64,000 nt of DNA from an uncultured Planctomycetia bacterium (GTDB lineage Bacteria > Omnitrophota > Gorgyraeia > 1-14-0-20-64-10). Positions 25,923 to 63,808 of the stretch are shown one piece after another. The notes beneath the pieces were generated by a model. The model was not told the DNA's origin, ran no database searches, and saw only the letters and a program-made list of their open reading frames with translations. The stretch is from positions 23,001-87,000 of the forward strand of contig CAYJWF010000003.1 of assembly GCA_964373805.1 (NCBI GenBank). The letters run 5' to 3'. Position 1 is the first letter of the stretch. Each line of letters begins with the position of its first letter. The position numbers were made by a program, and so were the translations under genes.

Positions 25923-26915
25923 TCAGCCGGTCCTCCGATGGCCTTGGATGGATAGGCTCTCCTGGACGGCAGCAGTCACTTCTTCAGGCACGGGGGAAAG
26001 AAGAAGATGGTGCCCTTCCCCTAGAGGACGCCATCGGGCAAGCAAAGATCCATGGTTGCACGGAGCGACCACAACGGTTGGGGTTCCGACGGCTGCTGCA
26101 ACGTGAACCGGCCCACTATCGTTTGATACCAGTACGGCGCATTGTTTCAAAAGAGCCGGAAGAATCCCTAGCGGGACTCGGCCGACCAGGTTTATATAAC
26201 CGGTAGAAAACATGGGTTTCGCTTCATCCATGGAGTGGATGGATTCTGGTCCTCCTATGACGACGATGGTATGCCCGCTTTTCTGAAGCAGACGGGTGAC
26301 TTCTCCAAAGGATTCCAGCGGCCAGCTTTTTTGAGGGTTGCTTGTCCAGGGATGGATGGCAATGGGGTGATGGCCTAGGGCAATACCACAAGCATTCATG
26401 AGCTGTTGGGCTTGACTTTCTTTCTCTGGATCGGTGGGTAGGTGTAAGGTCGATGGGGATGCCGGGATTCCTAAGAGGCGAACCAGTTCGAGATTATAGT
26501 TTACCTCATGGTGGTTTCTGAACACCTTGGTATCTGGAATGGACAAGGTCAGTAGAACTCCTAGTTTTCGATGGTAGCCAATCCGGGTGGGAATGCCGGC
26601 GAGAAAAGCGGCAACGTGAAATAGTTTGGTGGGATTAAGTATAATGGCACTATCGAACCTTTCCTTTCGCAGACGCCTTGCAACTCGAAAAGCTCCAACC
26701 CAACCCTTCCCTTCCTCAGGGGAACACGTCAGGATTCGATCGACGTCCGGATGCCCTTCGATGAGCGGCTCCAGGCCTTGCTGAACCAAGAGGGTGATTT
26801 GAGCTTTGGGGAAAGCCTCACGAGCAGCATGGACGGCCGGCAGACTCAAGAGCAATTCCCCCATCCGATCTGTCCGTACGAGCAGGATTCGTGATAGCGT
26901 TCGAGGTTCTTTCAT
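25923..26915 (-). CDS. GT9 family glycosyltransferase (LPS heptosyltransferase-like)
   Basis: ILLVRTDRMGELLLSLPAV N-terminus and SNDSGPVHVAAA motif. Confidence 0.8.
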   Translation of the reverse strand: MKEPRTLSRILLVRTDRMGELLLSLPAVHAAREAFPKAQITLLVQQGLEPLIEGHPDVDRILTCSPEEGKGWVGAFRVARRLRKERFDSAIILNPTKLFHVAAFLAGIPTRIGYHRKLGVLLTLSIPDTKVFRNHHEVNYNLELVRLLGIPASPSTLHLPTDPEKESQAQQLMNACGIALGHHPIAIHPWTSNPQKSWPLESFGEVTRLLQKSGHTIVVIGGPESIHSMDEAKPMFSTGYINLVGRVPLGILPALLKQCAVLVSNDSGPVHVAAAVGTPTVVVAPCNHGSLLARWRPLGEGHHLLLSPVPEEVTAAVQESLSIQGHRRTG

Positions 26916-40149: not shown

Positions 40150-40937
40150 TGTTCTGCTGCCTTCACGACTTGTCCCGTGTTCTCCAAGGCTGGTTTGACT
40201 CCGTGGGCTTTTAACCAGAACTCCACCAATGGAATCTGCCATTCGTAGTCCACATCGAGGCCCCCCCATTGCCTGAGCGGCCAAATTTTCTGTCCCATCC
40301 ATCTTTGCGGGAGCAACCCGCTCTTTAGATTTTCGAGGCAGCGTGGCCTGACGACAGACACTCCCATGTCTGCAAAATAGACATCCCCTTGCGAATCCCT
40401 GTCACAGCTTAAAGTGGTCGGATCTCCCCAGGCCTCAAACGGTACGAATGGATGGAGCAAACCGTCGGAGCCTAGTCGGCGTGCTCGGGGTGGACTCCAC
40501 ATGTTATAGACCGACACCGATACCGCAGAATCAATCTCTGGGCGTTTTCTAAGGACATCCACTCCTTCATCAATTAATGCCGAGGTAACCGTCGGGGCGT
40601 TGCAGAACAATAACACCATCAGCTCCAGATGCTTCCCCTCAGCCATCAGCTCATTACGGATGATCTGGTAACCGTGGACAAAGGCCTCTTCGCCTAGAGC
40701 TTCTTGAGTAGCCAGATGAGGTGGTCGATCGAGGATTCGTGCGCCGTATTGAATCCCAATCGCCTTGATGAGGTCAGAATCCGTGGACACAAAAACGCGA
40801 TCTACGCTCCGGGCCCCTTGTGATGCCAGCAGAGGATAAACCATAAGGGGGCGGCCAAGGATGGGAGTGAGATTCTTTCCCGGAAACCCCCTGCTTCCTT
40901 CCCGGCCTATAAGGAGCGCACAGATCATAGCTCTCAT
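40146..40937 (-). CDS. acylneuraminate (nonulosonic acid) cytidylyltransferase family protein (CTP_transf_3)
   Basis: ICALLIGREGSRGFPGKNLTPILGRPLMVYPL matches the NeuA/PseF/KdsB N-terminal glycine-rich nucleotide-binding motif. ATGA overlap at 40937. Confidence 0.7.
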   Translation of the reverse strand: MRAMICALLIGREGSRGFPGKNLTPILGRPLMVYPLLASQGARSVDRVFVSTDSDLIKAIGIQYGARILDRPPHLATQEALGEEAFVHGYQIIRNELMAEGKHLELMVLLFCNAPTVTSALIDEGVDVLRKRPEIDSAVSVSVYNMWSPPRARRLGSDGLLHPFVPFEAWGDPTTLSCDRDSQGDVYFADMGVSVVRPRCLENLKSGLLPQRWMGQKIWPLRQWGGLDVDYEWQIPLVEFWLKAHGVKPALENTGQVVKAAEQ

Positions 40938-42955
40938 CCTTCTTCGGAAAGCGACCGCGCTAACCCGATCGAGAAAGCCTCCATCAAATCGGGAGGGCCA
41001 AGCGTGACTCGGATGCAGTTGGCCAAACAAGGGGAATCAAAAGGCCCTTTAACCAAATAGCCGTGATAACGGAGTCTTTCTACTAATTGCGATGGGTCAC
41101 AGCGGCCTGCAACGCGCAGCAGCATGAAGTTCGTGTGGGTGGGCAGAGGAATCAACCCTAAGGCCTGGGCCCGTTTCGCCAGCCATTGTCCACCTGCTTC
41201 GACTTGGGCGACATAGTCGTCCATGATCTGAGGCTGCTTGAGGAGTTGACCTAGGCACATAATGGCTATGCTGTTGATATCATGGACTGACCGTACCTTA
41301 GAAAGATGGCTCATGACTTCAGGGTGTCCAGCAGAAAAGCCGATCCGTAGGCCTGCCAGTCCGGCTGCCTTGGAGAAAGACCGGATCGCCACCAGATGAG
41401 GGAATCGTTTAATCCAGGGAAGTATCGTGGTACGAGAGAATGGATAGTAGGCTTCATCAACCACCAGCAAGGCTCCTACCGAGGCTGTCCGATCAGCTAA
41501 CTGAAGCAGAACATCTTCCCCTAAGAGAGTTGCCGTTGGCTGGTTCGGGTTAGCGATCATGACCAAACGGACTCCTTCTGACACGCTACGGACCAATTGC
41601 TCGCCGTCCAGTACAAGGCTTTCGTTAAAGGAGATCTTCCGAGCCTTTGCATGAAACATCTGTGCATAAACCTCGTACATCGCGTAACTGGGATCCAGCA
41701 TCACCACGGTATCCCCTGGCTGGACGTAGGCTTGATAAAGGGCCTTAATGGCGGCATCGGATCCTGCCGTTAAGAGAAGCTGCTCTTCTGGGATGCCAAG
41801 CCATGCGCTCAACTGTTGGTAAAGCCCATGGGTGACGGGGTAATGGGTAAGCAACCGACTATGAAAGGATTGGCGCAGGGCGGTCATGAACTGTTCGGGT
41901 AACGGCTGCTGTCGCTCATTTCGATTCAGCCGGATGAGATTCTCCTGGGCACTTGGCTCCGGAGTCCGGTACAGCCCACTTAATCCAGGTACCGGCAGTG
42001 GGAGGGTCTTGGGACTCTCCACCGGAACGGGACCGGTTTCTGAGAACTTTGTGGCAACAGAAAAGATGGTATCGCAAAGCCAACGGGTTTTCAGACATCG
42101 GGCATATTCTTGATCGAGTTTCCAGTCGAATAGGTGGCTGTACTTGCCTTTCCCTCCCGGCTGTCCGGTGAGGAGCCAATGGATGTGATTGGAAAGATCG
42201 TAACGTTGCTCGGGAAACATTTTAAAACGAAAACCGGCCTGTTCCAAAACCCTGGCTAGCGTCCTGTGCGAGTAGTTGAAATAATGGGCCTTCTGCCAAT
42301 AGAACCGGTCGAAACTTTCCAGTTGGTAGAATCGCACTAAGGCGTCGTCTACGTTGGGCACTTCCATCGCCAACAGTCCCCCAGGCTGAAGCATATCGCG
42401 GAATTTGGCCAAACTTCTAACCGGTCTCTGCAGATGCTCGATCACATAGTAGGCCAGGATGAGATCAAAGCGTTCTTTCGCCACCTCATAAAGATTCGAA
42501 ACCGTCCGGATTCCCCGCCGATTGGCGTAATCCGCATAAAGCTTACCAGGTTCCACGCCAGTAATCGATGCCACGTAAGGCTCGACGGCAGCCAGCAGGA
42601 AACCGGTTGAACTTCCAATCTCAAGGACTCGCATGCTTGAACGCAGGTACGGCTGCAAGTGAACCAAACGGCGTTTTGCCTCCGCTTGGTTTTTCTTGAA
42701 GTGCTCTTCGGGCTCTGTCTCGCCAGGTCCTCCCCTCTCCTTCATGTAGTGCGCAAATTCAGCGCTGTAGAACTGCTTCTCCTCCTCTTCCATCATGGTC
42801 GGATGAATGAAGACAATCTCACAGGCGCTGCATCGACAGACAAAGGACCCGGGCATTCCCCAGACGGTATCGGCGATGCGATAGCGTGTTCCCCCATCTT
42901 GACAGAGCGAACATGGGATATCGACCTTGGGAGCCGTGTTGCTCCAGTTGGGCAT
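40934..42955 (-). CDS. bifunctional fusion: Zn-ribbon SAM-dependent methyltransferase (N) + class I/II PLP-dependent aminotransferase (C)
   Basis: N-terminus has CSLCQDGG...CRCSACEI then LEIGSSTGFLLAA motif I and LILAYYVIEHL. C-terminal ~370 aa has VVDEAYYPF and the SFSKAAGLAGLRIGF PLP-Lys motif, as in histidinol-phosphate/aspartate aminotransferase-like enzymes. Confidence 0.7.
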   Translation of the reverse strand: MPNWSNTAPKVDIPCSLCQDGGTRYRIADTVWGMPGSFVCRCSACEIVFIHPTMMEEEEKQFYSAEFAHYMKERGGPGETEPEEHFKKNQAEAKRRLVHLQPYLRSSMRVLEIGSSTGFLLAAVEPYVASITGVEPGKLYADYANRRGIRTVSNLYEVAKERFDLILAYYVIEHLQRPVRSLAKFRDMLQPGGLLAMEVPNVDDALVRFYQLESFDRFYWQKAHYFNYSHRTLARVLEQAGFRFKMFPEQRYDLSNHIHWLLTGQPGGKGKYSHLFDWKLDQEYARCLKTRWLCDTIFSVATKFSETGPVPVESPKTLPLPVPGLSGLYRTPEPSAQENLIRLNRNERQQPLPEQFMTALRQSFHSRLLTHYPVTHGLYQQLSAWLGIPEEQLLLTAGSDAAIKALYQAYVQPGDTVVMLDPSYAMYEVYAQMFHAKARKISFNESLVLDGEQLVRSVSEGVRLVMIANPNQPTATLLGEDVLLQLADRTASVGALLVVDEAYYPFSRTTILPWIKRFPHLVAIRSFSKAAGLAGLRIGFSAGHPEVMSHLSKVRSVHDINSIAIMCLGQLLKQPQIMDDYVAQVEAGGQWLAKRAQALGLIPLPTHTNFMLLRVAGRCDPSQLVERLRYHGYLVKGPFDSPCLANCIRVTLGPPDLMEAFSIGLARSLSEEG

Positions 42956-45873: not shown

Positions 45874-46675
45874 TGGAAGCTCCCTTAAATTGCGGATGAA
45901 GATGTCCGTACCGGTAAGGGTAGCAGGCTGCTTCTTTAAAACCCCGATCCGACAAGAAGGTTCGAACCAAAGAAGATTGAGGATGGGCCTCGTCCAATTC
46001 TACTAAAAGGCTCTTTACGCTCCGGAGGCTCCCTTCGGCGCCCTGAAGGATAATCAACTCGGTTCCATCCACATCCAGCTTTAGGTGAGTTGGGGCGGGC
46101 AGCTTAAATTGCTCAACGAGGGTATCCAGGTCAAACGTTAATACAGCCGCGCTCGCGGCAGGATGAAAATCCCTGCCCCGGTAATCCTTCGCCTCGCCCA
46201 AGGCATGCAGGGCGCCTCCCGGCGTCAGATTCGCGTAATGAAAAGTGTCCAAACCTGTGGTGTTGGCCAAGGCAACGGGCAATGGCGTTACCCATCGTTC
46301 GAATCCGTTTAACGTCAGATTCGAGAGTAAACGGGCAAAATTGAATGCACTCGGTTCAATCGCCACAACCCGGACGAGTTCCTTCCAGTAAGAAGCGGCC
46401 ACCAGCGTGTAGGTTCCCACGTTTGCGCCGATGTCGTAGAAGACATCCCCCTTTTCCATCTCGCGTTCAATCCAGGCGACCATCTCCGGTTCCTTGCGAC
46501 AGGCATGTAACCGAGTGTGGTATTCCACTTCCGAGGAAACCCCTAATCGGATGGCGTGTCGATCGTAATCGAGCAGCCCGATGACTTGTCCCGGAAGGCC
46601 CAGCCGAAAATGAAGCTTGGCAGAAACACGTCTTAGATACCTGGAGATCGCTTCCACCATCGGTTTCCTAGACAC
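45848..46675 (-). CDS. FkbM family methyltransferase
   Basis: FYDIGANVGTYT motif diagnostic of FkbM-type O-methyltransferases. Confidence 0.7.
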   Translation of the reverse strand: MSRKPMVEAISRYLRRVSAKLHFRLGLPGQVIGLLDYDRHAIRLGVSSEVEYHTRLHACRKEPEMVAWIEREMEKGDVFYDIGANVGTYTLVAASYWKELVRVVAIEPSAFNFARLLSNLTLNGFERWVTPLPVALANTTGLDTFHYANLTPGGALHALGEAKDYRGRDFHPAASAAVLTFDLDTLVEQFKLPAPTHLKLDVDGTELIILQGAEGSLRSVKSLLVELDEAHPQSSLVRTFLSDRGFKEAACYPYRYGHLHPQFKGASNVLFHRNG

Positions 46676-48471
46676 CCGTCGCTCTGCAGGGCTATTTCTT
46701 CTGTGAGCCTTTTCGTCCAGTCATCCAGCCAGTTTTTCTTTTCACGCGCGTAGCGATCCACAAAAATGCTTCGGGCCTGTTGGATCTCTTGGCCTCTCCA
46801 CCACAGCTCGGGGTCATGACAAATCGCCTTGACCTTGACCGCTGCCTCTTCAGGTGAATTCCACAGGATACCAGCGCGACGGAGTTCTTCGAAATAAGGA
46901 ACGGCTTCATCTCGTATCTCCCACCTCTGAGGATCCCAGAACATCACTGTCGGAACATTCGCTGCCAAGATTTCTAAAAGGGGAGTGGATAAATGGTCAA
47001 CGACAACGAGACGGCTTTTCCGAAGGCTCCGACAAAACGGAGTGCCATTGCCGTCCCAACGCAATTCGGGAAACTCTGTGGAGTACCACTCTCGGAGCTT
47101 GTGCCCAAAGTGATGCCGATGGGGCCGAAAAAGGATAAGCGCACGCAGCGGATTGGGAAGCGCTCTTAAAAAACGAAGTTGCCAATCAAAATATTCCTGG
47201 AGCTGTGTTCCTTGGGGCGAAGAGTAGAAGCGGTAGAGATATCGAGGATTGGTTGTGGCAACAAAAAGGACACCCCGCATCTTCTGAGGATCCCGATGGC
47301 CCAGCCGATTCGTCAAGGAAGAAATTTGGAGAGAAGGTACGTTCTGCAGGTGTCCCTTCTTCTGATCGGCCCATCCCCATACGAGAAAAGAGTCCGATAC
47401 ACAGCGCTCATGTTGTTCCATCGGGGCCGCACGGTAGATCCCGTATCCGCCTCCATGTTGAACAGCGACCAACCGGCGTCCTTTTAGCTGGGCCTCCGCG
47501 GCCAGGAATTTGAACGGTTCGTTAAAATACCAGCCGTTTCCCGATACAATTACAGACGGAATTCTAGGGTTTTTTCTAAGCAGCTCCTTATGGGCTTGAT
47601 GGAATCCTTCACAATAGAGGGTCGGGAAATTCTTTGGCAGGGAGTTCACAAAGACAGATTCGAACCCGTTGACTGTAGGAAGTGCGGCAAGCCCATTCCG
47701 GCGGTGGTCAAAGATCGGGTTCCACGTGGTCTGGGTCCATCCACCCCTTGGCTTTAAGGGCAGGGCTCGCAGGCCACTGCGCCAGGCCAGGGTCCATGCC
47801 GTGATGCTGGAAACAGCGAGGTCACAAAGAGCGACCTCACATCGGCGACTCAAGAGTCCTTGGGCAACGTCCTCTAGCTGGTCAAGGCTCCGCCGGACTG
47901 CAACCTTTACCCAACCGGATCCAGCGGCTCTCAGCGTGGGCTTTTTCTTCACGGCCCAGTCGGGTTGCAGCTTTTGAGCTGGAAAGAAAAGCCCCATGGC
48001 TTGGAACAATTGAGAAAAGATCTGAAGATTATACGGATCCTCCCGGATGGAATCGATGTACTCCGATGTGTCCTGGGGGACATGGAACGATTGAGGGTCC
48101 AAAACAATCGTCTGCCATTTTGGATATTTATCGTAGGCCTCTAGGAGATGCATGTACCTATCGTAGGCAGCGTGAAGATAGTGAAAGAGCCATGGCCCTA
48201 CGAGTATCCGCCAATACCGACGATTAAAGCTCACTTGATGAACCCCGTTCAAGTAATCGCTCAAGTCAACCAGCATACGCTCATAGCATTCCTCGAGATA
48301 GCGGGTCGCGTGGAGGTGCCGGCTTCGATCATCCCAAGGGCTTGGCATCACCCGATACCGAAGAGGGTTCCACTCCGAGCGCCTGTCGTATCGAAGACAC
48401 CAAGAACCCAGGAAGAGGATTTCTTGGTTCTTATCCCAGAATTGGCTCAGCGCGGTTGTTGCCAGAAACAT
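46633..48471 (-). CDS. hypothetical protein, paralog B of the three-member family (putative transferase, LIC12162-like?)
   Basis: 612 aa. N-terminal EILFLG and central PSVIVSGNGWYFNEPF...RLVAVQHGGGYG block align with 37094..39220 and 61727..63808. Confidence 0.5.
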   Translation of the reverse strand: MFLATTALSQFWDKNQEILFLGSWCLRYDRRSEWNPLRYRVMPSPWDDRSRHLHATRYLEECYERMLVDLSDYLNGVHQVSFNRRYWRILVGPWLFHYLHAAYDRYMHLLEAYDKYPKWQTIVLDPQSFHVPQDTSEYIDSIREDPYNLQIFSQLFQAMGLFFPAQKLQPDWAVKKKPTLRAAGSGWVKVAVRRSLDQLEDVAQGLLSRRCEVALCDLAVSSITAWTLAWRSGLRALPLKPRGGWTQTTWNPIFDHRRNGLAALPTVNGFESVFVNSLPKNFPTLYCEGFHQAHKELLRKNPRIPSVIVSGNGWYFNEPFKFLAAEAQLKGRRLVAVQHGGGYGIYRAAPMEQHERCVSDSFLVWGWADQKKGHLQNVPSLQISSLTNRLGHRDPQKMRGVLFVATTNPRYLYRFYSSPQGTQLQEYFDWQLRFLRALPNPLRALILFRPHRHHFGHKLREWYSTEFPELRWDGNGTPFCRSLRKSRLVVVDHLSTPLLEILAANVPTVMFWDPQRWEIRDEAVPYFEELRRAGILWNSPEEAAVKVKAICHDPELWWRGQEIQQARSIFVDRYAREKKNWLDDWTKRLTEEIALQSDGCLGNRWWKRSPGI

Positions 48472-50503: not shown

Positions 50504-51462
50504 GATTCCTTCTCGAGGCAGACAAAGTGGTAACCGCCCAGCGCCTTACTTCTTCCATCCAATTCAACCAGTTCTTTGAGAAAGGGTCGAATCGTATCAA
50601 TCCAATCCGATTTGATGGACCGGCGATTGGCTTCGCTCATCTTTTCTACCATTCGAATCAGGACGGGAAATAGGGGGCGCAGGCCGATGTCCCATACCCT
50701 CAAGGTCAAAGGAGAAAGATAGGAATGGTGCGACACCATCTTAAACCTGAGGCTATGGGAGAGCCTTCCCAATTCAGATTGAGAAATGGTCCAGCGGATG
50801 GATTCGCTTCTTCCTCTGTTTAACAAATGGAGAATGGGTGAGCCCGACTCTCTCCAGTGGTAACTCATGCAGTATTCCTTGAGCTTGGGATCCGGTAAAC
50901 ACAGGAAGGCCCGGCCTCCCCACCGGAGGATCCGCCACACCTCCTTGAGCGATGCCTCAGCCGAATTGAGCCAGTACAACATATTGGAAAAAATCGTCTG
51001 AAAGGATTCCTCCTGGAAAGGAAGCCCATGGTTGGCGTTTGAGGCAGCCACCCAACGATAGAATCCCAACGCTTCTGCCTGGCGTAATAAATTCGGTTTG
51101 CCGTCCAAGGCCCCATCGAATGAGGCCTCCGGTTTTCTTACGATCCAAGCCGGTTCGAAGGGAGCTCGAAGGCAGTCATACACGTCCCCATGGGTCCAAA
51201 AGCCCTTTACATCGACGTTTCGATACCAATCAAACTCCGGTGAGAACGATCCTCCCGCTGTGATGAAACTGAAAATTCCGTTCCCACAACCGAGGTCAAG
51301 CGATGGAGAATCGAACCTCACCGATGCAATCACAGAGGAAGCAATGGCATCCCATAACGCCGATTCGGGTCGAAGCCAGTGTACATTCAGATGCTCCTCA
51401 AGAAAACAGAATGGCCCCGCTTGAGATCCCCGTAAAGCTGGACTAGAGATTTGCTGAGGCAT
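50494..51462 (-). CDS. class I SAM-dependent methyltransferase
   Basis: LDLGCGNGIF motif I. Start assigned to internal ATG (MPQQISSP). The first 54 aa of track ORF 50494..51624 look antisense-derived. Confidence 0.6.
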   Translation of the reverse strand: MPQQISSPALRGSQAGPFCFLEEHLNVHWLRPESALWDAIASSVIASVRFDSPSLDLGCGNGIFSFITAGGSFSPEFDWYRNVDVKGFWTHGDVYDCLRAPFEPAWIVRKPEASFDGALDGKPNLLRQAEALGFYRWVAASNANHGLPFQEESFQTIFSNMLYWLNSAEASLKEVWRILRWGGRAFLCLPDPKLKEYCMSYHWRESGSPILHLLNRGRSESIRWTISQSELGRLSHSLRFKMVSHHSYLSPLTLRVWDIGLRPLFPVLIRMVEKMSEANRRSIKSDWIDTIRPFLKELVELDGRSKALGGYHFVCLEKESCR

Positions 51463-52078
51463 AGGCCTGCCTGCGTTGGAGCACCTTCTCTGCCAGCCAG
51501 AAGTCGAATTCATCGTCAATCTCGAGGTTTTGTTCTCGATCAGTGAACATTCGCTCGATTCGTGTTCCATACCGATCCCCTTGTTGGATGAGACTCGCTC
51601 TAATGACGTACACGTTTCCATCATCGCAAAAGAGGCCGGGCAACTCTTGGCGCCTCAACGTATTCTTCCCATACTCAACAGATTTACAGAGAAAGCCGGT
51701 CGCAAGGGAGTCTGCCTTTGTTTCGAGAAACCTCTCGATGCAACGATCGATGAGACCCGGTTCCCGAATAGGGGAAGTCGCCTGAAGGAGGACCACTATC
51801 TCTGCTGGGATCTGGGTGAGTACCTGTTGGAGAACGCTTAAGGTTGTCGCTTCGTCGCTGGCTAGGTGGTGGGGTCGGTGAATGAACTCACCTGTCCATC
51901 GCCGTGTCACCTGAGCAATCTCAGGGTCTTCCGTAGAAACGACATGCCGATCGAGAAGTCGGGAGGCCTTACCGGCTTCGATCGTCCAGGCGATGAGCGG
52001 CTTACCGGCCAAGATCCGGATATTCTTCCGAGGGACCCCTTTGCTTCCTCCCCGTGCGGGGGTTATTCCCAAGATCAT
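51443..52078 (-). CDS. acylneuraminate/pseudaminate cytidylyltransferase (CMP-nonulosonic acid synthetase family)
   Basis: MILGITPARGGSKGVPRKNIRILAGKPLIAWTIE is the canonical NeuA/PseF/LegF N-terminal motif. 211 aa. Confidence 0.75.
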   Translation of the reverse strand: MILGITPARGGSKGVPRKNIRILAGKPLIAWTIEAGKASRLLDRHVVSTEDPEIAQVTRRWTGEFIHRPHHLASDEATTLSVLQQVLTQIPAEIVVLLQATSPIREPGLIDRCIERFLETKADSLATGFLCKSVEYGKNTLRRQELPGLFCDDGNVYVIRASLIQQGDRYGTRIERMFTDREQNLEIDDEFDFWLAEKVLQRRQAYASANL

Positions 52079-53768: not shown

Positions 53769-54788
53769 TCATTCCAACTTTTCCCAGGTAATGACCTCGT
53801 CCTTCCGGATGGCTTGCTTGGCGAGTCGGCCGATAACGGTCCGATAAAGCGAAGGGGCTACGCCCGTTCCAGGGCGCTTCAAAATAATCTGGTCCTCAGA
53901 GATCGCTTCCCCTGCCTGAATGTCACTACGAGCGATGGCGCTCTTCCGAGTCTGCAGCCGCATATTCTCCTCAGTGGGGGCTGGACGTTTCACCTCATCT
54001 CCTAGGGCTTGTTCAAGCTCCCGAACGGCTAAGACCAACGCCTTCATTTCCGGTGGATCTGCAGAGAAAAAAGCGTCGGGTGAATCCAGGTGCTTATCGA
54101 GAGTAAAATGGCGCTCAATCACCGATGCTCCTAAAGCGACAGCACCCAGCGGAACACTCAGGGTCATCGTGTGATCTGAAAAGCCAATCGGCGCCTTGTA
54201 CGCCTTTTGCAGGGCACGAATGGCCTTGAGATTAACGAGGTGAAGATCCTTGACCGGATAGTTGGAAATGCAGTGGAGAATGGCCACCTGGTTGTTTCCC
54301 GTGTCGAGGATAGCTCGCACAGCCTCATCGACCTCCGCTAACGTAGCCATCCCCGTTGAGAGAATAATCGTTTTACCCTTCTGGGCGACATAGCGGATGA
54401 ACGGGAGATTGGTCAGATCGTCCGAACCGACCTTGTAAGCCGGCACCTCAAGTCGTTCAAGGAGGTCCACATCATCAAAATAGCTGGGGGTTGAAAAGAC
54501 CATGATCCCACGGTTTCGAGCGTGAGCAAAAAGTTCACCGTGCGCTTGTTCAGAAAGCTCATATCTCTGGAATTCTTCAAATTGATTCGTGCCACCGGCC
54601 TCTGCTGGAAAATCGACCATTCGAGAAGTAACCGTTTCTGCCCTAAACGTCTGGAACTTCACAGCATCTACGCCGCATTCCATAGCAGCGTCGATAGTGG
54701 CCTTGGCCTCTTCCAGTGTATTAAAGTTATATCCGATCTCAGCGATAATGAAGACCGGTTGGCCTGTGCCGATGAAACGATCCGCCAT
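53769..54788 (-). CDS. N-acetylneuraminate/pseudaminate/legionaminate synthase family (NeuB/PseI/LegI), full length with C-terminal SAF domain
   Basis: PVFIIAEIGYNFNT (IAEIGxNHxG-like), AVKFQTF, KVGSDDLTN, ILSTGMATL, GFSDHT, IERHFTLD, then a C-terminal SAF/antifreeze-like region. Start at internal ATG (MADRFIGTG) at 54788. Confidence 0.8.
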   Translation of the reverse strand: MADRFIGTGQPVFIIAEIGYNFNTLEEAKATIDAAMECGVDAVKFQTFRAETVTSRMVDFPAEAGGTNQFEEFQRYELSEQAHGELFAHARNRGIMVFSTPSYFDDVDLLERLEVPAYKVGSDDLTNLPFIRYVAQKGKTIILSTGMATLAEVDEAVRAILDTGNNQVAILHCISNYPVKDLHLVNLKAIRALQKAYKAPIGFSDHTMTLSVPLGAVALGASVIERHFTLDKHLDSPDAFFSADPPEMKALVLAVRELEQALGDEVKRPAPTEENMRLQTRKSAIARSDIQAGEAISEDQIILKRPGTGVAPSLYRTVIGRLAKQAIRKDEVITWEKLE

Positions 54789-54816
54789 CTTTACCTTCTG
54801 CTGGAGGGTGGAAGGA

Positions 54817-55536
54817 TTATTCAAGGATTTTCTCCAAAGTTTGCGCGCCGATTCCTTTCAAGATATCGCCACTCCTTGGACCATGGTTGAATAGAAGATC
54901 AATAGCAGACATACAAGGCAGAAACGTTTCATGGAGCTGCTGATAAATGGGATGGTGGAACGCCTGAATTTGAACCTCAACGCCCTCACTGCGGAACTTC
55001 TCTAGGTCAAGGTAGGCTTTCCCTGAAATACCGGACAGATACCTTGAAGCCCCAACCTTCTGACAAATCTCTAGGTTCAAATCTCCCTTTCGTGCTTGGA
55101 TTCCAAGTTCCGAAGAACGTTTCAAGGGTACGGAGATCGCAAAGGCCTCCAGCAGGTACCGGATGATGGTTTCGTTAAGGTCAACAAGCCATTTCCATTG
55201 GCAGTGATACAGCTTTTCAAAAAATTCGGCGTGCGCAGGAAAAAAGCAGGCCTTCCGGTAACAATCCATCAGAAGACGTAAGCAGGTCCTTCGCCAATGA
55301 GGACTCCCCGTATTATCAATCTCAACCTGATTAATGGATTGCAGGTGTCTTCCCTTAATCAAGATGGGAACCGTAAGCCAGCGGAATCCTTCAGAGGATC
55401 GGATTCTGTTCCGGTTTTGGAAATACTGTTTTCTGTACTGCACATGATCCAGAAGAACCAATAGATCCACCTGCCGGGCCTTATCGAAAAAACCAAGCCA
55501 CGGAAGGTGCTCGGGTTGGTGGATGGTTACCGTCAT
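54817..55536 (-). CDS. WbqC-like family protein
   Basis: MTVTIHQPEHLPWLGFFDKARQVDLLVLLDHVQY is the conserved WbqC N-terminus. Start at internal ATG. The upstream 101 aa of track ORF 54817..55839 are antisense-like. Confidence 0.65.
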   Translation of the reverse strand: MTVTIHQPEHLPWLGFFDKARQVDLLVLLDHVQYRKQYFQNRNRIRSSEGFRWLTVPILIKGRHLQSINQVEIDNTGSPHWRRTCLRLLMDCYRKACFFPAHAEFFEKLYHCQWKWLVDLNETIIRYLLEAFAISVPLKRSSELGIQARKGDLNLEICQKVGASRYLSGISGKAYLDLEKFRSEGVEVQIQAFHHPIYQQLHETFLPCMSAIDLLFNHGPRSGDILKGIGAQTLEKILE

Positions 55537-57638: not shown

Positions 57639-58563
57639 CTGCCTTATTCCAAGTTTGGATCTGTTGTTCCTGACGGGAGCGATACCAATCGATATAACGC
57701 TCTAGTCCATCTCGGAAGGTGGTGGTGGCCTTCCAGCCCAACTCCTTCTCCGCCTTGGCGCTGTGGACACGCTTGCCCGGAAAATCCCCTGGTCGAGCGG
57801 AGGTGGCCAGAACCTGAACGTCTCCTAAGATCTCCTGAAGGGTCTGGACAATCTGTTTAATGCTGATACGATCACTTCCATCCAGGTTGTAGATCTGGTT
57901 GACTGCACCGGGTTTCAGGCTCAGCACAATGCCTTCCGCTAAGTCCTCCACGTAAACAAACTGGCGGAACTGCATGCCGTCCCCTGCAACCGTTAGCGGC
58001 TCTCCCTTCAAGGCCCTGCCGACGAAAATGGGGATGACTGCCCCATCGCGCGCTCGCGGACCATAAGGAATGCCAAAGCGAAGGATCGTGTATTCCAAGT
58101 TGTACAGTACGGAATAGGCACGGCAGTAGTATTCGGAGGCAATCTTGGTGGCCGTATAAAGGTGCGAAGGGGGTGGGATCGGCGTCTCCTCATTCACCTC
58201 CGCATCGGGGCAATCGCTGTAAACCCAGCTGGTACTTCCATAGAGGAGGCGCTTGACACGACAGCGTCGTGCAGCCTCTAGAACACAGAGGGTACCCCGT
58301 GTATTAACGGTTTCTGCGTAGGATGGATCTTCCATGACCTCCTTGACATCGGCGACTGCCGCGAGATGTATGACGGCGTGGATTCCCGCCATGGCAATCC
58401 GGAGAGCCTCAACGTCCAGGATGCTTCCGATGAAATGTTCCACCTCTGTATGAACCGTTGAACGATGATGGTCAAAGATCAGGGGTGTAATCCCGTGCGA
58501 CATCAAGCGATCCACCACATGGGAACCAATAAACCCCGCGCCACCTGTCACGAGAACTCTCAT
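57619..58563 (-). CDS. NAD-dependent epimerase/dehydratase (GalE-like SDR)
   Basis: VTGGAGFIGSHVV and YTATK motifs. Confidence 0.75.
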   Translation of the reverse strand: MRVLVTGGAGFIGSHVVDRLMSHGITPLIFDHHRSTVHTEVEHFIGSILDVEALRIAMAGIHAVIHLAAVADVKEVMEDPSYAETVNTRGTLCVLEAARRCRVKRLLYGSTSWVYSDCPDAEVNEETPIPPPSHLYTATKIASEYYCRAYSVLYNLEYTILRFGIPYGPRARDGAVIPIFVGRALKGEPLTVAGDGMQFRQFVYVEDLAEGIVLSLKPGAVNQIYNLDGSDRISIKQIVQTLQEILGDVQVLATSARPGDFPGKRVHSAKAEKELGWKATTTFRDGLERYIDWYRSRQEQQIQTWNKADAALRP

Positions 58564-59573
58564 GCGACCGTTCCTTTTTGGGCAGACGCCAGATGCCGTC
58601 GAAGAAGCTCCAAAGCGGTCTTCGCCGCTTTGGTCTGAGATTCCACGGTGGCCCCTGCCATATGCGGTGTGATGACGATCTGCCCCCGTTGATGGTAAGC
58701 CAAAAGAGGAGAGTTCTTCTGCTGATGGGTTACCTCCCCGGCTAACACATCCAATCCAACGCGCAGATCCGGTCGCTTGGAAAGAACATCGGCCAAGTCC
58801 TGTTCAAGGATGACCTCTCCACGGGATGTATTGACCAGACAAGCCCCCCATTTCAGTCTTTCGAGAAAGGAGTGGTTAATGAATCCTGTCGTTTCAGGGG
58901 TAAGTCGACAGCAAAGACAGATAACTTCCGATCGGCTAAAGAGTTCCTCCAGCGATTCGGTGGGATAGACATCGGAGGTGACGTACGGATCGAAGTAGGA
59001 TACTCGAGCCCCAAAGGCAATGCAGTAATGGGCCAACCGCTGACCGATTCGCCCAAGGCCGATGATTCCCACCCGTTTACCCTGCAATTCGTGGCCTCGA
59101 AGTCGCTCCTCTCGATCCCGCCATCGCCCAGCAGAAACTTCTTGGATTGCTACATCGAGGCGGCGAAGGGTGTTCAGAAGTAACAAAAACGTGAATTCCG
59201 AGCTGGCCGAGATCTGCACGAGAGCGGCTCGATCATCCAAGAGGCTGTAGACGGAAACCCCTCGCCGGGTACACGCCTCCAGATCGATGTGGTTACAGCC
59301 GGTGGAGGGGGTAACCAACACGGACAGAGAAGGATACAGGTCCAAGATCGCCTCATCGATGACAAACAGTTGTCCAGGGTTTACCACCCATGCCGTAAGG
59401 TCCTCCGCAGGACTCAGCTCTTGACGACGCCAGATCTCTTTAAAGATGGTTGGGATCAAGGACTGGTAGGCCTCCACGAGCTTTCCGAGGAATTCAAACG
59501 GCGCACTAAAGAGGCACCATCCGGTTTTTACACCTGCGAGAGCCGTTGGGGAAGATGGATGGGGTGTCCCCAT
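58560..59573 (-). CDS. D-isomer-specific 2-hydroxyacid dehydrogenase family protein (NAD-binding)
   Basis: GIIGLGRIGQRLA dinucleotide-binding motif, conserved R/E/H catalytic arrangement (TSRG...ITPHMAG). Confidence 0.7.
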   Translation of the reverse strand: MGTPHPSSPTALAGVKTGWCLFSAPFEFLGKLVEAYQSLIPTIFKEIWRRQELSPAEDLTAWVVNPGQLFVIDEAILDLYPSLSVLVTPSTGCNHIDLEACTRRGVSVYSLLDDRAALVQISASSEFTFLLLLNTLRRLDVAIQEVSAGRWRDREERLRGHELQGKRVGIIGLGRIGQRLAHYCIAFGARVSYFDPYVTSDVYPTESLEELFSRSEVICLCCRLTPETTGFINHSFLERLKWGACLVNTSRGEVILEQDLADVLSKRPDLRVGLDVLAGEVTHQQKNSPLLAYHQRGQIVITPHMAGATVESQTKAAKTALELLRRHLASAQKGTVA

Positions 59574-59574
59574 A

Positions 59575-60318
59575 TCAAAGATTCCTCGCTACCCCGGAGA
59601 GGTTGTTCAAGGTTGCCTCTGCCATCATGGACAACTCCGGTCCCAGAGTCGTCAAAAGACGAAACTCATCTGGTGTAGCGCTTAAGATGTGATCGCGGAT
59701 AACCTGGGAAGTCTTATTCAACGTAAAGTGCTTCTCGATGTAACGTGCACCCCGAGCTGCAGCCAACAAACAAGCGGCGATTCCATGGCAATGGTCGCTG
59801 TAGCCATAATAGCCATCCGATCCAAAAAGCGGGGGGAAATCCGTTAGGTCCGAAGGATAGGTCGGGTATTTCGACCGGCAGTAAATGTAATGCAGGCGAT
59901 GGGCATCGGGCTGCCCGAATGGGAAACCAGGCCTGTCCCACATACCAAGCGAAACGTAGGTCGGCTTGCCCTCCGATAAGATCCGCTCGCATAAGGCGGG
60001 GTTGTCAACCACCGTCCTTGAAGCGATCTTGTATCGCTGCAATCCAATGCCCTGGGCAAGGGCGAGCCCTTCCTCCGTTATGAGGGAAGCTAACATCTCA
60101 ATGCCGATGCCCTCACACCAGGCCTTTAGTTGCCTAGCTTGCTTCTCATCGATCTGATTGATTTCCCCTGGATTGCAACGCCATCCGAACTGGAACTTCG
60201 CCAGTTCAGCGCCGGCCATCCTTGCCTGCCGGATCAGCTCGTAGGCCAGATCGAAATTGCCATCGTGGTTTAATCCGATCTCAGCAACAAGAACCATCTG
60301 TTTATCTGCTAAGGCCAT
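59575..60318 (-). CDS. NeuB-family TIM-barrel protein lacking the C-terminal SAF domain (divergent nonulosonic/ulosonic acid synthase-like)
   Basis: VAEIGLNHDGN, AELAKFQ, YKIASR, YVSLGM, YSDHCHG and IEKHFTLNK match NeuB barrel motifs. The protein ends ~40 aa after the barrel, 247 aa. Confidence 0.6.
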   Translation of the reverse strand: MALADKQMVLVAEIGLNHDGNFDLAYELIRQARMAGAELAKFQFGWRCNPGEINQIDEKQARQLKAWCEGIGIEMLASLITEEGLALAQGIGLQRYKIASRTVVDNPALCERILSEGKPTYVSLGMWDRPGFPFGQPDAHRLHYIYCRSKYPTYPSDLTDFPPLFGSDGYYGYSDHCHGIAACLLAAARGARYIEKHFTLNKTSQVIRDHILSATPDEFRLLTTLGPELSMMAEATLNNLSGVARNL

Positions 60319-60336: not shown

Positions 60337-61737
60337 TCACATCGCAGTAGACAGACTTACCGTTCTTTGTAAAAGGATCTGTTCGATAAGCCAAGCGTCA
60401 TAAGGCGTTTTAATTTGATAGCTCTCGTGCCCGGGCATAACCACATGCCCAACTTTTCGACCGAGGAGGTCTTTCGCGGTCAACACATCGCGCCAGCATG
60501 CCTTGATCGCTCCATTGTCCACATACAGTGCTTCCCGCTCGATTCGTATCTGATGGTGCATGGCTGGGTTTAAGGGTGTGAGTCCATGGATGCCATGGAC
60601 ATAATGAAGTTTATAATCCTCATAGACGCTCAGGACGCTGTCTGTGTTATACAGGATGAGCGTGTCAATCGCTTCCCGGATATGTTCTGCTCGACGAAGC
60701 GGAGTATGAACATTCAGCAGAACAAGAATATCCGAGTAGACCCCGTGTTCCTCTTCCAGGCGGCGCACAGCATCCTCGGCTATTTCGCTTTCCAGGATCC
60801 GATCCCCAGAAAGTTCCACTGGCCGGAGCATCGCTAGGACTTCGGGAAAACGCCGACAGTATTCAACTACTTGCGGATCATCGGTAGTCACCAGCATGAC
60901 CTCAAAACTGCCAGTTTGTTGGGCGGCCTCTATGGTGTAATCAATCAGCAGGCGATCTGCCAACTTCGTCAGGACGATGTTCGGTAGAGCTTTATACGTG
61001 TTTTTAGCGGTCACAATCGCCACGGCACGGGGTGTACCGTTCCCACCTCTTCGTTCCACTATATCTCGCTTGATCCGACCTCGTGCTTGCAGCAATCGTG
61101 ATTCATCTTTTGTGAGTGACTCATCATGTTGCCGGTAGAAGAACAGAGGTGTGTGGACATTCGCTACGCCATAACGGTGTAGTATCTTTAGCCACAACTC
61201 ATAACCATCCTGGCTGTTGTAACGTTCGTCATATCCACCCAAGCTCTTGAGCGCCCGTTTACGGATTAAGGTGCCTGCGCCGTGCGCAGGAAGATCCAAA
61301 AGTTGTGCCTCTTGCCCAATCCGTTTACGCTGCTCAAGCCCTAAATAGTTGCCACGTTCATCTACATAGATGTAGTTCGGATAGACTAACGCCACCTCCG
61401 GATAGCGATCAAGATAAGATCCCAGGACAAGGAGTGCATTCTCATCCAGGTAGTCATCGGCATCCAGCCGCATGATATAAAGGCCACGGGCAATGGCAAG
61501 GGCCTCATTCGCAGACACCTGAAGACCCCGCACTTGAGGATGGGTGATGACGGAGATCTTTGAAGGGTTACTTGCCCGATAGGAGGCGGCAATGGCCGAC
61601 GTTTGGTCCTGCGACCCATCATCAATGATGATCAGTTCCCAATCAGGCATTGTTTGTAACAGTACGCTTTCTATCGCCTGGGCGAGGAAGTGTCCATACC
61701 GGTGGCATGGAATGTAAACGGTAACTCTACATTCCAT
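60337..61737 (-). CDS. fusion protein: GT2 glycosyltransferase (N) + acylneuraminate cytidylyltransferase-like CTP_transf_3 domain (C)
   Basis: N-terminus has VYIPCHRYGHFL...IIIDDGSQD...RLDADDYL (GT-A DxD). C-terminus has AIVTAKNTYKALPNIVLTKLADRLLIDYTIEAA, a NeuA/KdsB-like glycine-poor variant. Confidence 0.6.
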   Translation of the reverse strand: MECRVTVYIPCHRYGHFLAQAIESVLLQTMPDWELIIIDDGSQDQTSAIAASYRASNPSKISVITHPQVRGLQVSANEALAIARGLYIMRLDADDYLDENALLVLGSYLDRYPEVALVYPNYIYVDERGNYLGLEQRKRIGQEAQLLDLPAHGAGTLIRKRALKSLGGYDERYNSQDGYELWLKILHRYGVANVHTPLFFYRQHDESLTKDESRLLQARGRIKRDIVERRGGNGTPRAVAIVTAKNTYKALPNIVLTKLADRLLIDYTIEAAQQTGSFEVMLVTTDDPQVVEYCRRFPEVLAMLRPVELSGDRILESEIAEDAVRRLEEEHGVYSDILVLLNVHTPLRRAEHIREAIDTLILYNTDSVLSVYEDYKLHYVHGIHGLTPLNPAMHHQIRIEREALYVDNGAIKACWRDVLTAKDLLGRKVGHVVMPGHESYQIKTPYDAWLIEQILLQRTVSLSTAM

Positions 61738-63808
61738 GCCACACCTTTTCGTTGATAATCGGCACGGCCACTTCTCTGGTCTCTATCTCAAGAGGAATCT
61801 GTTGTTTTCTAGGTTGATCAGGGTAAGAATCGCCGCGCTGCACCCTGACGACCAAGCCCCAAATCGCCTCACGGAAGCGCTGAATATTCTGGCCATCGGC
61901 GAAGTAAGTCTGCTCATGGGCAAAACGCTCCCATTCGCAATCCAGGATGGGATGACCATAGAGGGCTCCCTTCATGGCGCGTACGAATTGATCGGCCTTG
62001 GTTATGACGAAGTCGGCCCCGTAATCACCAAAGGTCACTTCCCCTAATCCCTCGGTATCAAACGAAAAACATTTTTTCCCAGCCGCTCCCGCTTCGATAA
62101 CCACGGAAGAGGCTGAATTGCCGACCACAACATCAGCGACTGCAATCCATTCATAGGTAGAGAGCTCAACCGAATCCCAGATAACACGAGGGTGAGTCAT
62201 CAGAGACCGCAGGGACGGTTCGCCACGGTACCTTTCCAAGCTTTTCCGGCTGCGGGGTCGAAGGACGACCCATAACTCTGGAATGGCCTCTAGGGCTTGG
62301 AGGATCCCACGGTACAACTCTGGAAAACGATCTGGGATTTGATATTCAACATCAGCCGGATGAGTGGGTAATGTGACCAAAACCACGGCACCATGGATTC
62401 CCCACCGACTCCGTATCTGGGTACGTAGTGATCCGAGACTTTCTGGTTTTAGAGCTTGTACCACATAATCCAACCGATGATTTCCAATGGGCATACATTC
62501 AACAGCATCCCAATGGTGGCCGAACGCCTTTCTAAATCTTTCGTTCCATACACACAAACGATTCATAAACAGATAGCGGATCTCTGGAAATACATGGGTC
62601 AGAGAATTTGCGGAATGGTGTACACCGACGGTGGCTCTGCCAAAATGGTTTGCAACGATGGTTCGCATCACGCTGTTGGGCTCATAATCAGCGCACTCAA
62701 CGCGAACAGAGTACTGTACACGGCGATTGAACAATAGCTCCTTCAGCAGTGCCGACAAGATGAAGCCTGATGCAAGAACGACGGCAGGTGGTTCCATCAA
62801 AAGCGCGACAGGATTTTGGATAAGTGCCTTTGCCAAACTTGCTGCTAGTCTGTAGATCTCAGACCGATGAGACTTGTCCGCACGAAGGGTGACCGCGTCA
62901 AACCATCGGATTCCCCGTTGTGACATCAAACGTTCTTGTTCGGCCCGTTCTTCTGCGGTAAGCCTCCATGAACTGTAATAGAAGGCTACTGTATGGCTGT
63001 TTAATTCCCCACCGAAAAATGACTCATTATCCCATTGCAGCCGCTTCTTATCGGACAACTTCCAAACCAGAGGAACGACGACCGGTACGTTTACAACCGG
63101 CTGGTCGGGAACACCCGGATGAAAAGATCGAAAGATATGGCGAATCAACACCGCTGGCCAGACAGCCCCATTCATAAAAAGTGCCGTTATCCTTCGCCGC
63201 CACACGCTCCATGGATTGAGCATCCGAATAGATCGAGGAAACTGGGCTCCCTTGAGCTCGAAGTGGCGACGAGTCTGCCAAGGATCGTCATCTTCTGGAA
63301 TCAGGGTAATGGCGCCTTCCTCCTTCAGGAGATATTCTGCAAACCGATAGAACTGAGTTGCGGCATGGATGTATGGTAGCAGAAGTCTGCTGTACATCCG
63401 GTCCACAGCGTCATTCGCCACAATCTTGTACAATACCTGATAACTTTTCATGCACCGGACACGCTGCATGGCCGCTTCGACATAGACGTCGCTGGCGTAA
63501 AGATTCAACTGTCCCAGTCGGTTACGTGTGGCACGATCGACCCTACTGACCTGACCGCCTGCCAACCGGCGGAGCAACCACCATGTCAGCCGGTTCACCC
63601 GTCCTTCGGGCCGCCTATCCTCAAGCGTATAAGGGTCGAATACCAGAACTTTCTTTGCCTGTCGGATCTCGCGCCATGAAGCAACTATTCGGGCCAGGCC
63701 GACCGATTGTAATAAGACAATATCTCGGCTTCTATTGCTTTCCGGCATATTCTTCCACGAAGCCTCGTTCCATAATCTTGTAACTTTCTTCCGCCTTCTG
63801 CGGTTCAC
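61727..63808 (-). CDS. hypothetical protein, paralog C of the three-member family (putative transferase)
   Basis: 693 aa. Central block VRVECADYEPNS...RATVGVHHSANSLTH aligns with the other two paralogs. Start uncertain: an internal ATG ~63748 reduces overlap with the next ORF. Confidence 0.5.
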   Translation of the reverse strand: MNRRRRKKVTRLWNEASWKNMPESNRSRDIVLLQSVGLARIVASWREIRQAKKVLVFDPYTLEDRRPEGRVNRLTWWLLRRLAGGQVSRVDRATRNRLGQLNLYASDVYVEAAMQRVRCMKSYQVLYKIVANDAVDRMYSRLLLPYIHAATQFYRFAEYLLKEEGAITLIPEDDDPWQTRRHFELKGAQFPRSIRMLNPWSVWRRRITALFMNGAVWPAVLIRHIFRSFHPGVPDQPVVNVPVVVPLVWKLSDKKRLQWDNESFFGGELNSHTVAFYYSSWRLTAEERAEQERLMSQRGIRWFDAVTLRADKSHRSEIYRLAASLAKALIQNPVALLMEPPAVVLASGFILSALLKELLFNRRVQYSVRVECADYEPNSVMRTIVANHFGRATVGVHHSANSLTHVFPEIRYLFMNRLCVWNERFRKAFGHHWDAVECMPIGNHRLDYVVQALKPESLGSLRTQIRSRWGIHGAVVLVTLPTHPADVEYQIPDRFPELYRGILQALEAIPELWVVLRPRSRKSLERYRGEPSLRSLMTHPRVIWDSVELSTYEWIAVADVVVGNSASSVVIEAGAAGKKCFSFDTEGLGEVTFGDYGADFVITKADQFVRAMKGALYGHPILDCEWERFAHEQTYFADGQNIQRFREAIWGLVVRVQRGDSYPDQPRKQQIPLEIETREVAVPIINEKVWHGM

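Follow-up and report, generated by a model that had tools for sequence, protein, structure and literature searches.

A SAF-less NeuB-family protein in a conserved glycosyltransferase cassette: a probable PEP-condensing synthase with an altered acceptor site

The DNA considered here is a stretch of 64,000 nt (the window) from contig CAYJWF010000003.1 of assembly GCA_964373805.1, assigned to an uncultured Planctomycetia bacterium and, in the GTDB lineage, to the Omnitrophota. Its gene at 59575..60318 on the minus strand encodes a NeuB-family barrel protein of 247 aa that lacks the antifreeze-like (SAF) domain and is called NeuBshort in the following. NeuB-family enzymes carry out a metal-dependent condensation of phosphoenolpyruvate (PEP) with an aldehyde, and NeuBshort is a putative PEP- and metal-dependent 2-keto-3-deoxy-acid synthase. 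On balance, the sequence comparisons lead us to favor an intact, probably active enzyme of a SAF-less clade with altered acceptor specificity. Its partner for PEP would be neither N-acetylmannosamine (ManNAc) nor a di-N-acetyl-trideoxyhexose but another aldehyde, which may be smaller or anionic, and the 2-keto-3-deoxy acid formed in the condensation would feed the transferase and dehydrogenase machinery encoded next to it.

An earlier reading of the window, made from the letters alone (the sequence-only reading), had called the protein a truncated paralog that keeps the NeuB barrel motifs, lacks the SAF domain and lies 5 kb from a full-length NeuB-like synthase. Most of this description was confirmed. 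All quoted motifs were located in the translation (AEIGLNHDG at residues 12-20, KFQ at 41-43, GMWDR at 125-129, SDHCHG at 174-179 and EKHFTL at 195-200), and the full-length NeuB/PseI-like synthase (53769..54824, minus strand, 351 aa) is found about 4.8 kb away with both a NeuB (Pfam E 5.6e-84) and a SAF domain (E 2.5e-12). The word truncated had to be dropped, as the gene is intact and its orthologs stop at the equivalent point. It starts with ATG, preceded by a GGAGG Shine-Dalgarno sequence about 12 nt upstream, runs without internal stops or frameshifts, and is tightly coupled to its neighbors. Its TGA stop occupies 59577-59575, and the ATG of a 2-hydroxyacid dehydrogenase gene (59573-59571) follows after 1 nt. 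Since that gene begins 1 nt later, a SAF domain in another frame is impossible downstream of NeuBshort. A tblastn search of all frames of the window with the SAF domain of the paralog (E up to 10) returned the self-match at 53772-53999 and a 15-residue chance match at 26096-26140, and no further SAF sequence. Gene spacing, ribosome-binding site, the tblastn result and the ortholog lengths given below together rule out a frameshift, truncation, assembly artefact or pseudogene, so that this reading is effectively refuted.

NeuBshort is a member of the NeuB family PF03102, a PEP-condensing barrel. In the profile search for NeuB and SAF domains, Pfam reported PF03102 alone (E 1.8e-27, 96.8 bits against a cutoff of 22.1), with residues 55-223 aligning to profile positions 52-226 of 241, and no SAF match. 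The NCBIfam equivalogs for NeuB (TIGR03569, 108.5 bits, cutoff 399.65) and PseI (TIGR03586, 77.8 bits, cutoff 340.25) matched the barrel part only. An AlphaFold 2 model (pLDDT 88, pTM 0.87) shows a complete (beta/alpha)8 barrel with a long C-terminal helix at residues 216-246. Foldseek ranked 6NCS first among the PDB entries (E 1.8e-15, query-normalized TM 0.78, 28% identity), followed by PseI and NeuB, and all top matches were NeuB, PseI or SpsE structures. Matches to DAHPS and KDO8PS were far weaker (E about 1e-7 to 1e-5, 10-14% identity). These two are merely distant fold neighbors, and a better home in another TIM-barrel family was thus not borne out by Pfam, NCBIfam or Foldseek.

The same searches bear on a lyase or aldolase that would cleave an ulosonic acid, a reading that we group with a truncated pseudogene in decay and an artefact of assembly. 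The group has in its favor only the missing SAF domain and the intact paralog nearby, and we regard it as hardly credible. Neither the DHDPS/NanA nor the HpcH/HpaI lyase families matched NeuBshort in Pfam or NCBIfam, no lyase structure was among its top 50 PDB fold matches, and the residues that bind the PEP phosphate are conserved. NeuB chemistry consumes PEP and is effectively irreversible, which counts against a lyase. The suggestion in the sequence-only reading of an aldolase working in reverse finds no support, given retained PEP-phosphate-binding residues and no similarity to a lyase family. As for decay, the uninterrupted frame, the gene's own ribosome-binding site and the tight coupling all stand against it; no SAF remnant is left, and the best 120 homolog clusters are of like length.

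A large, old clade of the NeuB family shares the lack of a SAF domain. Among 5.8 billion proteins searched, 3056 homologs of NeuBshort were found, and the best 120 clusters are all 224-260 aa long, match PF03102 alone and are 64-78% identical to NeuBshort. More than 120 ortholog clusters of this length, at 56-78% identity, share its end point. When every protein of a library of 1.84 billion sequences clustered at 50% identity was scored, the best ~70 representatives were almost all shorter than 270 aa, which is the ground for calling SAF-lessness a clade trait. The sole SAF-bearing exception, of 316 aa and at rank 6, was P0134; otherwise, proteins of 330-350 aa start at about E 1e-26. A scan of species-representative genomes gave 23 orthologous loci at 53-70% identity, from Anaerolineales, Dehalococcoidia, Omnitrophota, Planctomycetia, Acidobacteria, 'Deltaproteobacteria', Myxococcales, Bradymonadales, Rhodospirillales and Elusimicrobiota. 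With a protein from a Nitrospirota metagenome-assembled genome (MAG), which also belongs to it, the orthogroup spans about nine phyla. One carrier, Lujinxingia vulgaris TMQ2 of the Myxococcales/Bradymonadales group, is in culture. For the window itself, gene order and closest relatives indicate Planctomycetia-like MAGs. About 75 positions are invariant among 14 orthologs. In the passages that deal with them, a 2021 survey (PMC8208679) puts NeuB homologs without SAF at about 30%, clustered in the tree and derived from environmental bacteria.

To see what the loss of the SAF domain entails, NeuBshort was aligned residue by residue to the Neisseria meningitidis enzyme (NmNeuB, 2wqp/1xuu), with the contact residues taken from PMC6795526: Glu25, Gln55, Asn74, Thr110, Phe112, Lys129, Asn184, Tyr186, Ser213, His215, Glu234, Phe288 and Arg314. 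According to work cited there, Arg314, which is contributed by the SAF domain of the partner subunit, is essential for catalysis. The alignment, proposed along with the sequence-only reading, found every metal-binding histidine and PEP-binding residue in place. The correspondences (NmNeuB to NeuBshort) are Glu25 to E13, Lys53 to K41, Gln55 to Q43, Thr110 to S78, Lys129 to K97, Ser132 to S100, Tyr186 to Y151, Ser213 to S174, His215 to H176, Glu234 to E195, His236 to H197 and Asp247 to D209. E13, K41, Q43, K97, S100, S174, H176, E195, H197 and D209 are invariant among the orthologs, as is the full PEP-binding set of K41, Q43, S78, K97, S100 and S174. The metal histidines H176 and H197 and the catalytic glutamates E13 and E195 are unchanged in 14 orthologs and in 86-100% of 104 short representatives.

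The sugar side of the pocket differs. The beta2-alpha2 loop, which bears Asn74 in NmNeuB, is about 20 residues shorter; Gly133-Glu134 is replaced by an Arg101-Thr102 pair that is invariant among the orthologs; and Phe288 (linker) and Arg314 (SAF) have no counterpart, as NeuBshort ends at the position of the NmNeuB linker. Of the four determinants by which NmNeuB positions its sugar (the Asn74 loop, Glu134, Phe288 and Arg314), each is thus lost or replaced. Besides Arg101, the conserved basic residues R47 (in the motif AKFQFGWR), R148, K150, R208 and H210 flank substrate-contact positions in the sequence, and we infer that Arg101 and these residues line the acceptor pocket.

In the favored reading, Arg101 would do in cis the job of the SAF arginine. 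A set of 104 short and 25 long representatives of the family was compared at these positions. Position 101 is Arg in 62/104 short proteins and in 3/25 long ones, which mostly have Gly or Ala, and position 102 is mostly Ser, Thr or Val in the short proteins and Asp or Glu in 21/25 of the long ones. Among representatives of at least 300 aa, 18 of the 21 with an acidic residue 102 carry the SAF 'R-P' arginine, and all three with Arg101 lack an equivalent of Arg314. Since Arg101 and a non-acidic residue 102 go with a missing SAF arginine among the relatives, we put forward the hypothesis, suggested by a small sample, that Arg101 in cis took over the role of Arg314 in trans. The exception mentioned above, P0134, is 49% identical to NeuBshort and retains the SAF domain with K-S-P in place of K-R-P, while its barrel reads A-S-R-T and thus has Arg101-Thr102. 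It has the look of an intermediate on the way to losing the SAF domain, in which case an arginine would have been gained in the barrel first, the trans arginine lost next, and the SAF domain lost last.

The gene context was counted in 27 non-redundant loci that hold a NeuBshort ortholog, and it forms a cassette within surface-glycan or flagellar loci. Directly upstream of NeuBshort in the window lies a fusion of a glycosyltransferase family 2 (GT2) domain with a CTP_transf_3-like domain (60337..61737, minus strand, 466 aa; Glycos_transf_2 at residues 6-165 and a weak CTP_transf_3 match at 240-360 by Pfam). Such a fusion of about 470 aa stands directly upstream of NeuBshort in 24/27 loci and is its sole near-universal neighbor. 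Directly downstream, in 12/27 loci, follows a D-isomer-specific 2-hydroxyacid dehydrogenase, which in the window (58560..59573, minus strand, 337 aa, 2-Hacid_dh_C E 3.9e-44) is translationally coupled to NeuBshort. Its sRGe, LDVlagE and tPH motifs, which we take to carry the catalytic Arg, Glu and His of the family, align with those of the phosphoglycerate dehydrogenase PGDH (3ddn). Rosetta-stone fusions link the domains of the cassette pairwise: NeuBshort with 2-Hacid_dh in a single open reading frame (ORF) of 592 aa (L026 1645-3423), CTP_transf_3 with 2-Hacid_dh in one of 586 aa (L006 6702-8462), and a short NeuB with a partial GT2 domain in one of 429 aa (P0186). In 5 of 6 Myxococcales/Bradymonadales loci (L015-L019, not L020), a canonical CTP_transf_3 gene fills the dehydrogenase slot directly after NeuBshort.

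The reverse question was asked of 63 metagenome loci that have a GT2-CTP-like gene and enough sequence downstream of it. Directly downstream, 11/63 have a NeuBshort ortholog, 9/63 a NeuB that aligns to the window's paralog into its SAF region, and 2/63 another NeuB (L045, at a contig end, and L099). As SAF-bearing NeuB genes follow the same fusion elsewhere, the slot that NeuBshort fills is one of genuine nonulosonic-acid synthases. Of the three functions offered by the sequence-only reading, a divergent ulosonic-acid synthase is the one that gained support, from the invariant metal and PEP residues, from this slot, and from the CMP-sugar synthetase gene next to NeuBshort in L015-L019. The clade-wide lack of SAF, the altered acceptor pocket and the three-gene cassette had escaped the sequence-only reading.

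Another of these functions, a partner subunit, was less fortunate. It would make NeuBshort a non-catalytic or regulatory subunit that heterodimerizes with the full-length NeuB/PseI-like enzyme 4.8 kb away, and we consider this highly improbable. The full-length paralog does lie in the same operon-like cluster, and passages of PMC8208679 describe NeuB enzymes as domain-swapped dimers. Against this, the catalytic set of NeuBshort is complete and invariant across phyla, its conserved partner is the GT2 fusion and no NeuB, and most orthologous loci are without a SAF-bearing NeuB, which occurs within 10 kb in only about 5/27. The paralog is merely 26% identical to NeuBshort and keeps both the acidic residue at the 'E134' position (as D) and the KRPG arginine. 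NeuBshort is independent of SAF-bearing NeuB genes, and the paralog is part of a parallel Pse-like pathway and no required partner.

A more serious competitor is an ordinary synthase of pseudaminic- or legionaminic-type nonulosonic acids from a 2,4-diacetamido-2,4,6-trideoxyhexose, redundant or alternative to the paralog and merely lacking the SAF cap. The surroundings fit it: the cluster holds PseC-, PseG-, PseF- and PseI-like genes, NeuBshort takes the same position next to the GT2-CTP-like fusion as SAF-bearing NeuB, and SDR and DegT genes follow the dehydrogenase in the window and in L010, L011 and L013, at 68-75% identity. It is nevertheless unlikely, as the Asn74 loop, Glu134, Phe288 and Arg314 are all missing or replaced, the scores fall far under the NeuB and PseI equivalog cutoffs, and no hexose-modifying genes stand beside the cassette among the annotated ORFs of L019 and L024. 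In these two loci (L019 being Lujinxingia vulgaris), no dehydratase, aminotransferase or SAF-bearing NeuB was found among the annotated ORFs within 10 kb, several ORFs there being unscanned.

L024 (4789-15450) is one of three loci from Rhodospirillales/Alphaproteobacteria MAGs, with L022 and L023, in which the GT2-CTP-like and NeuBshort core lies between flgD-flgE and fliF-fliG, with no sugar-pathway genes among the annotated neighboring ORFs. Such a position hints that the core may act in flagellar modification. The GT2-CTP-like protein of this core has a putative N-terminal extension of about 130 aa. In other loci the context comprises Pse-like genes, an HpcH/HpaI aldolase (L026), an FkbH-like gene (L027), an AMP-binding ligase with HMGL-like genes (L030) or AsnB-like amidotransferases (L002, L019). 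Aldose phosphates, glyoxylate, tartronate or aspartate semialdehyde and phosphonoacetaldehyde were considered as the acceptor aldehyde, and the contexts proved too varied to decide among them.

In L031 (12250-15930), and also in L032, the cassette adjoins phosphonate genes, namely a cytidylyltransferase-PEP mutase fusion, a phosphonopyruvate decarboxylase-like (Ppd) thiamine pyrophosphate enzyme and an Fe-ADH. L031 holds in addition a second 2-Hacid_dh gene followed by a protein of the LIC12162 family (PF27859), and in L001 a LIC12162 protein is encoded near the dehydrogenase. An MsbA-like ABC exporter gene often comes after NeuBshort or the dehydrogenase (L002 10699-12489, L008 11690-13456, L014 11661-13427 and L039 10645-12426). 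It was recognized by Pfam in L002 and L008 (ABC_membrane and ABC_tran), by synteny with L008 in L014 and by reading the sequence in L039. Its presence suggests that a lipid-linked or soluble product is exported.

The fusion partner encoded in the window has orthologs in L001-L026 and L033-L112. Its GT2 half keeps the DDGS and RLDADD(Y/W) motifs, with its DXD motif intact. The other half aligns to CMP-Neu5Ac synthetases (6ifd at 8e-11, 1eyr at 5e-9), and its P-loop reads A-K-N-T-Y-x-x-L-P-N-I-V-L as against A-R-Q-N-S-K-G-L-P-L-K-N-L in NmCSS, so that Lys21 is replaced by Ile or Val. Likewise, the D-I-D of NmCSS (Asp209/Asp211) has become Q-I-K. We take Lys21, Asp209 and Asp211 of NmCSS to be catalytic, with the two Asp binding Mg2+. 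The replacements hold throughout the close orthologs; in distant relatives the DxD equivalent is also non-canonical and variable, with the second Asp kept in some. A normal CMP-sugar synthetase was rejected for this domain, as the P-loop Lys and both Mg-binding Asp are replaced in the close orthologs. The domain is under selection, yet it is no canonical CMP-sugar synthetase; it could be a CMP-sugar-binding or transfer domain instead.

The product of NeuBshort would take one of two routes: CMP activation followed by transfer into a glycan, or C2 reduction through the dehydrogenase that is fused to NeuBshort or encoded next to it. The second route, taken on its own, is a further rival, in which NeuBshort and the dehydrogenase make a 3-deoxy-aldonic (2,4-dihydroxy) acid by C2 reduction of a 4-hydroxy-2-oxo acid, for use as an acyl or ether substituent of another sugar and not as a CMP-activated glycosyl residue. 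It draws on the single NeuB-2-Hacid_dh ORF of L026 and the 1-nt spacing in the window, on the Arg, Glu and His motifs that align with PGDH, on a CTP-like domain without the canonical catalytic residues, and on the acid- and acyl-chemistry genes of L026, L027 and L030. The dehydrogenase is missing in 15/27 loci, though, a canonical CMP-sugar synthetase gene takes its slot in L015-L019, and the CTP_transf_3-2-Hacid_dh fusion of L006 ties it to cytidylyl chemistry. We therefore hold this alternative to be quite improbable, more so than an ordinary nonulosonic-acid synthase.

Several points also weigh against the favored synthase with an altered acceptor. A straightforward sequence of synthesis, CMP activation and transfer is not given, because the CTP-like domain is without the canonical Lys and both Asp, and in loci such as L024 a canonical CMP-synthetase gene was undetected near the cassette. 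The role of the dehydrogenase is ambiguous, since reduction at C2 would destroy the anomeric center needed for CMP activation. A nonulosonic-type acceptor stays in play because the window and several Planctomycetia cassettes adjoin SDR, DegT and a full Pse-like pathway. The proposed place of Arg101 and the basic residues in the pocket derives from their adjacency in sequence to known contacts. Lastly, 32/63 loci with a GT2-CTP-like gene have no NeuB within 6 kb downstream.

In the window, the cassette belongs to about 50 kb of one-strand genes (about 13000-64000, minus strand) that form a single giant surface-glycan cluster. It contains a GT4 initiating transferase with CoA_binding_3, Wzy_C, two GT9 heptosyltransferases, GT1 enzymes and PMT_2-like proteins, several methyltransferases, B12- and SPASM-type radical-SAM enzymes and a methyltransferase-aminotransferase fusion (40934-42955). 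The Pse-like pathway consists of DegT, WbqC, NeuB with SAF, a PseG-like protein, PIG-L and CTP_transf_3. The last of these, a stand-alone cytidylyltransferase (51443..52078, minus strand, Pfam E 6.6e-26), is the candidate CMP-ulosonate synthetase of the cluster. Between 54817 and 57638 (minus strand), ORFs overlap by 95 nt (DegT/radical-SAM-SPASM) and 275 nt (radical-SAM/WbqC), and the Pfam match of the DegT-like ORF (342 aa) spans profile positions 5-251 of 360. Probably the mechanical ORF caller placed the starts too far upstream; alternatively, the DegT may be without its C-terminal part. The cluster also encloses the gene of an S8 peptidase with a LamG domain (29958-31781).

Directly upstream of the cassette lies an orphan protein of 693 aa (61727..63808, minus strand), for which neither Pfam nor NCBIfam gave a match even at E up to 10. 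It has homologs of 28-30% identity in the Planctomycetia loci L010 and L011, that of L011 with a weak Glycos_transf_1 (GT-B) match (E 0.008), and may belong to the cassette module. In L039, a different orphan of 696 aa stands in the place of NeuBshort; no similarity was detectable between the 693-aa protein and either this orphan or Pfam LIC12162. Together with 46633-48471 (612 aa) and 37094-39220 (708 aa), the 693-aa protein is one of three large minus-strand ORFs of the glycan cluster without a Pfam match, which may be novel glycosyltransferases or polymerases.

Among known systems, NmNeuB (1XUZ, 1XUU, 2WQP) and PseI (8H2C) are the natural reference. They share PF03102 and the TIM barrel with NeuBshort (Foldseek E about 1e-14, query-normalized TM 0.72-0.77), and their metal ligands, Glu25/Glu234 and the PEP-binding Lys53, Gln55, Lys129, Ser132 and Ser213 are all matched. 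Unlike them, NeuBshort has no linker or SAF domain, a short beta2-alpha2 loop and Arg101-Thr102, at 23-25% identity and scores far under the equivalog cutoffs. The structural-genomics entry 6NCS, a Leptospira borgpetersenii 'N-acetylneuraminic acid synthetase', is a NeuB barrel with a chain of 290 aa, below the 330-350 aa of SAF-bearing enzymes. Its likeness to NeuBshort is one of length, and it demonstrates that short chains of the NeuB type can fold and crystallize. It falls in another subgroup: its residue at the Glu134 position is acidic (K-I-A-S-C-D) and its beta2-alpha2 loop is longer. In L. interrogans, a related NeuB domain carries a fused phosphatase (PMC3438082) and has no link to a GT2 fusion. 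KDO8P and DAHP synthases, stand-alone TIM barrels too, likewise turn PEP and an anionic (phosphorylated) aldehyde into a 2-keto-3-deoxy acid; they are of another sequence family, to which NeuBshort has no Pfam or NCBIfam match.

NeuBshort fits the description of the environmental NeuB group without SAF in PMC8208679, whose passages on that group assign no function, gene context or compensating residues. The existence of SAF-less NeuB homologs, described in those passages, and a short NeuB-type structure in the PDB (6NCS) are thus already known. New are the Arg101/Thr102 signature, its co-variation with Arg314, and the cassette of GT2-CTP-like fusion, NeuBshort and dehydrogenase, none of which turned up in our literature searches. 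We found no publication on the orthogroup or its cassette, only PMC8208679 and PMC3438082 bearing on SAF-less or short NeuB proteins, and no determined function for any SAF-less NeuB homolog.

Nonulosonic and other 2-keto-3-deoxy acids decorate capsules, lipopolysaccharides, S-layers and flagella and shape recognition by hosts and phages. It is possible, if rather doubtful, that the cassette is a 'make and attach' module for a new acidic sugar or 3-deoxy-aldonic acid, with an internalized arginine, a new acceptor aldehyde, probably small or anionic, and a pseudo-cytidylyltransferase recruited for donor binding or transfer. If true, the degenerate CMP-sugar-synthetase-like domain with its GT2 partner would be a new type of ulosonate transferase acting on surface glycans and flagella. 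With P0134 there is a concrete path from a domain-swapped active site to a self-contained one. What had been a vague 'truncated paralog' becomes a problem of enzymology, with an orthogroup of about nine phyla, a specific rewiring of the active site and a link to a GT2 fusion and a dehydrogenase; Lujinxingia vulgaris is a cultured organism in which the aldehyde and the sugar product of NeuBshort could be studied. NeuBshort is, in this sense, a well-defined enzymology lead rather than a surprise.

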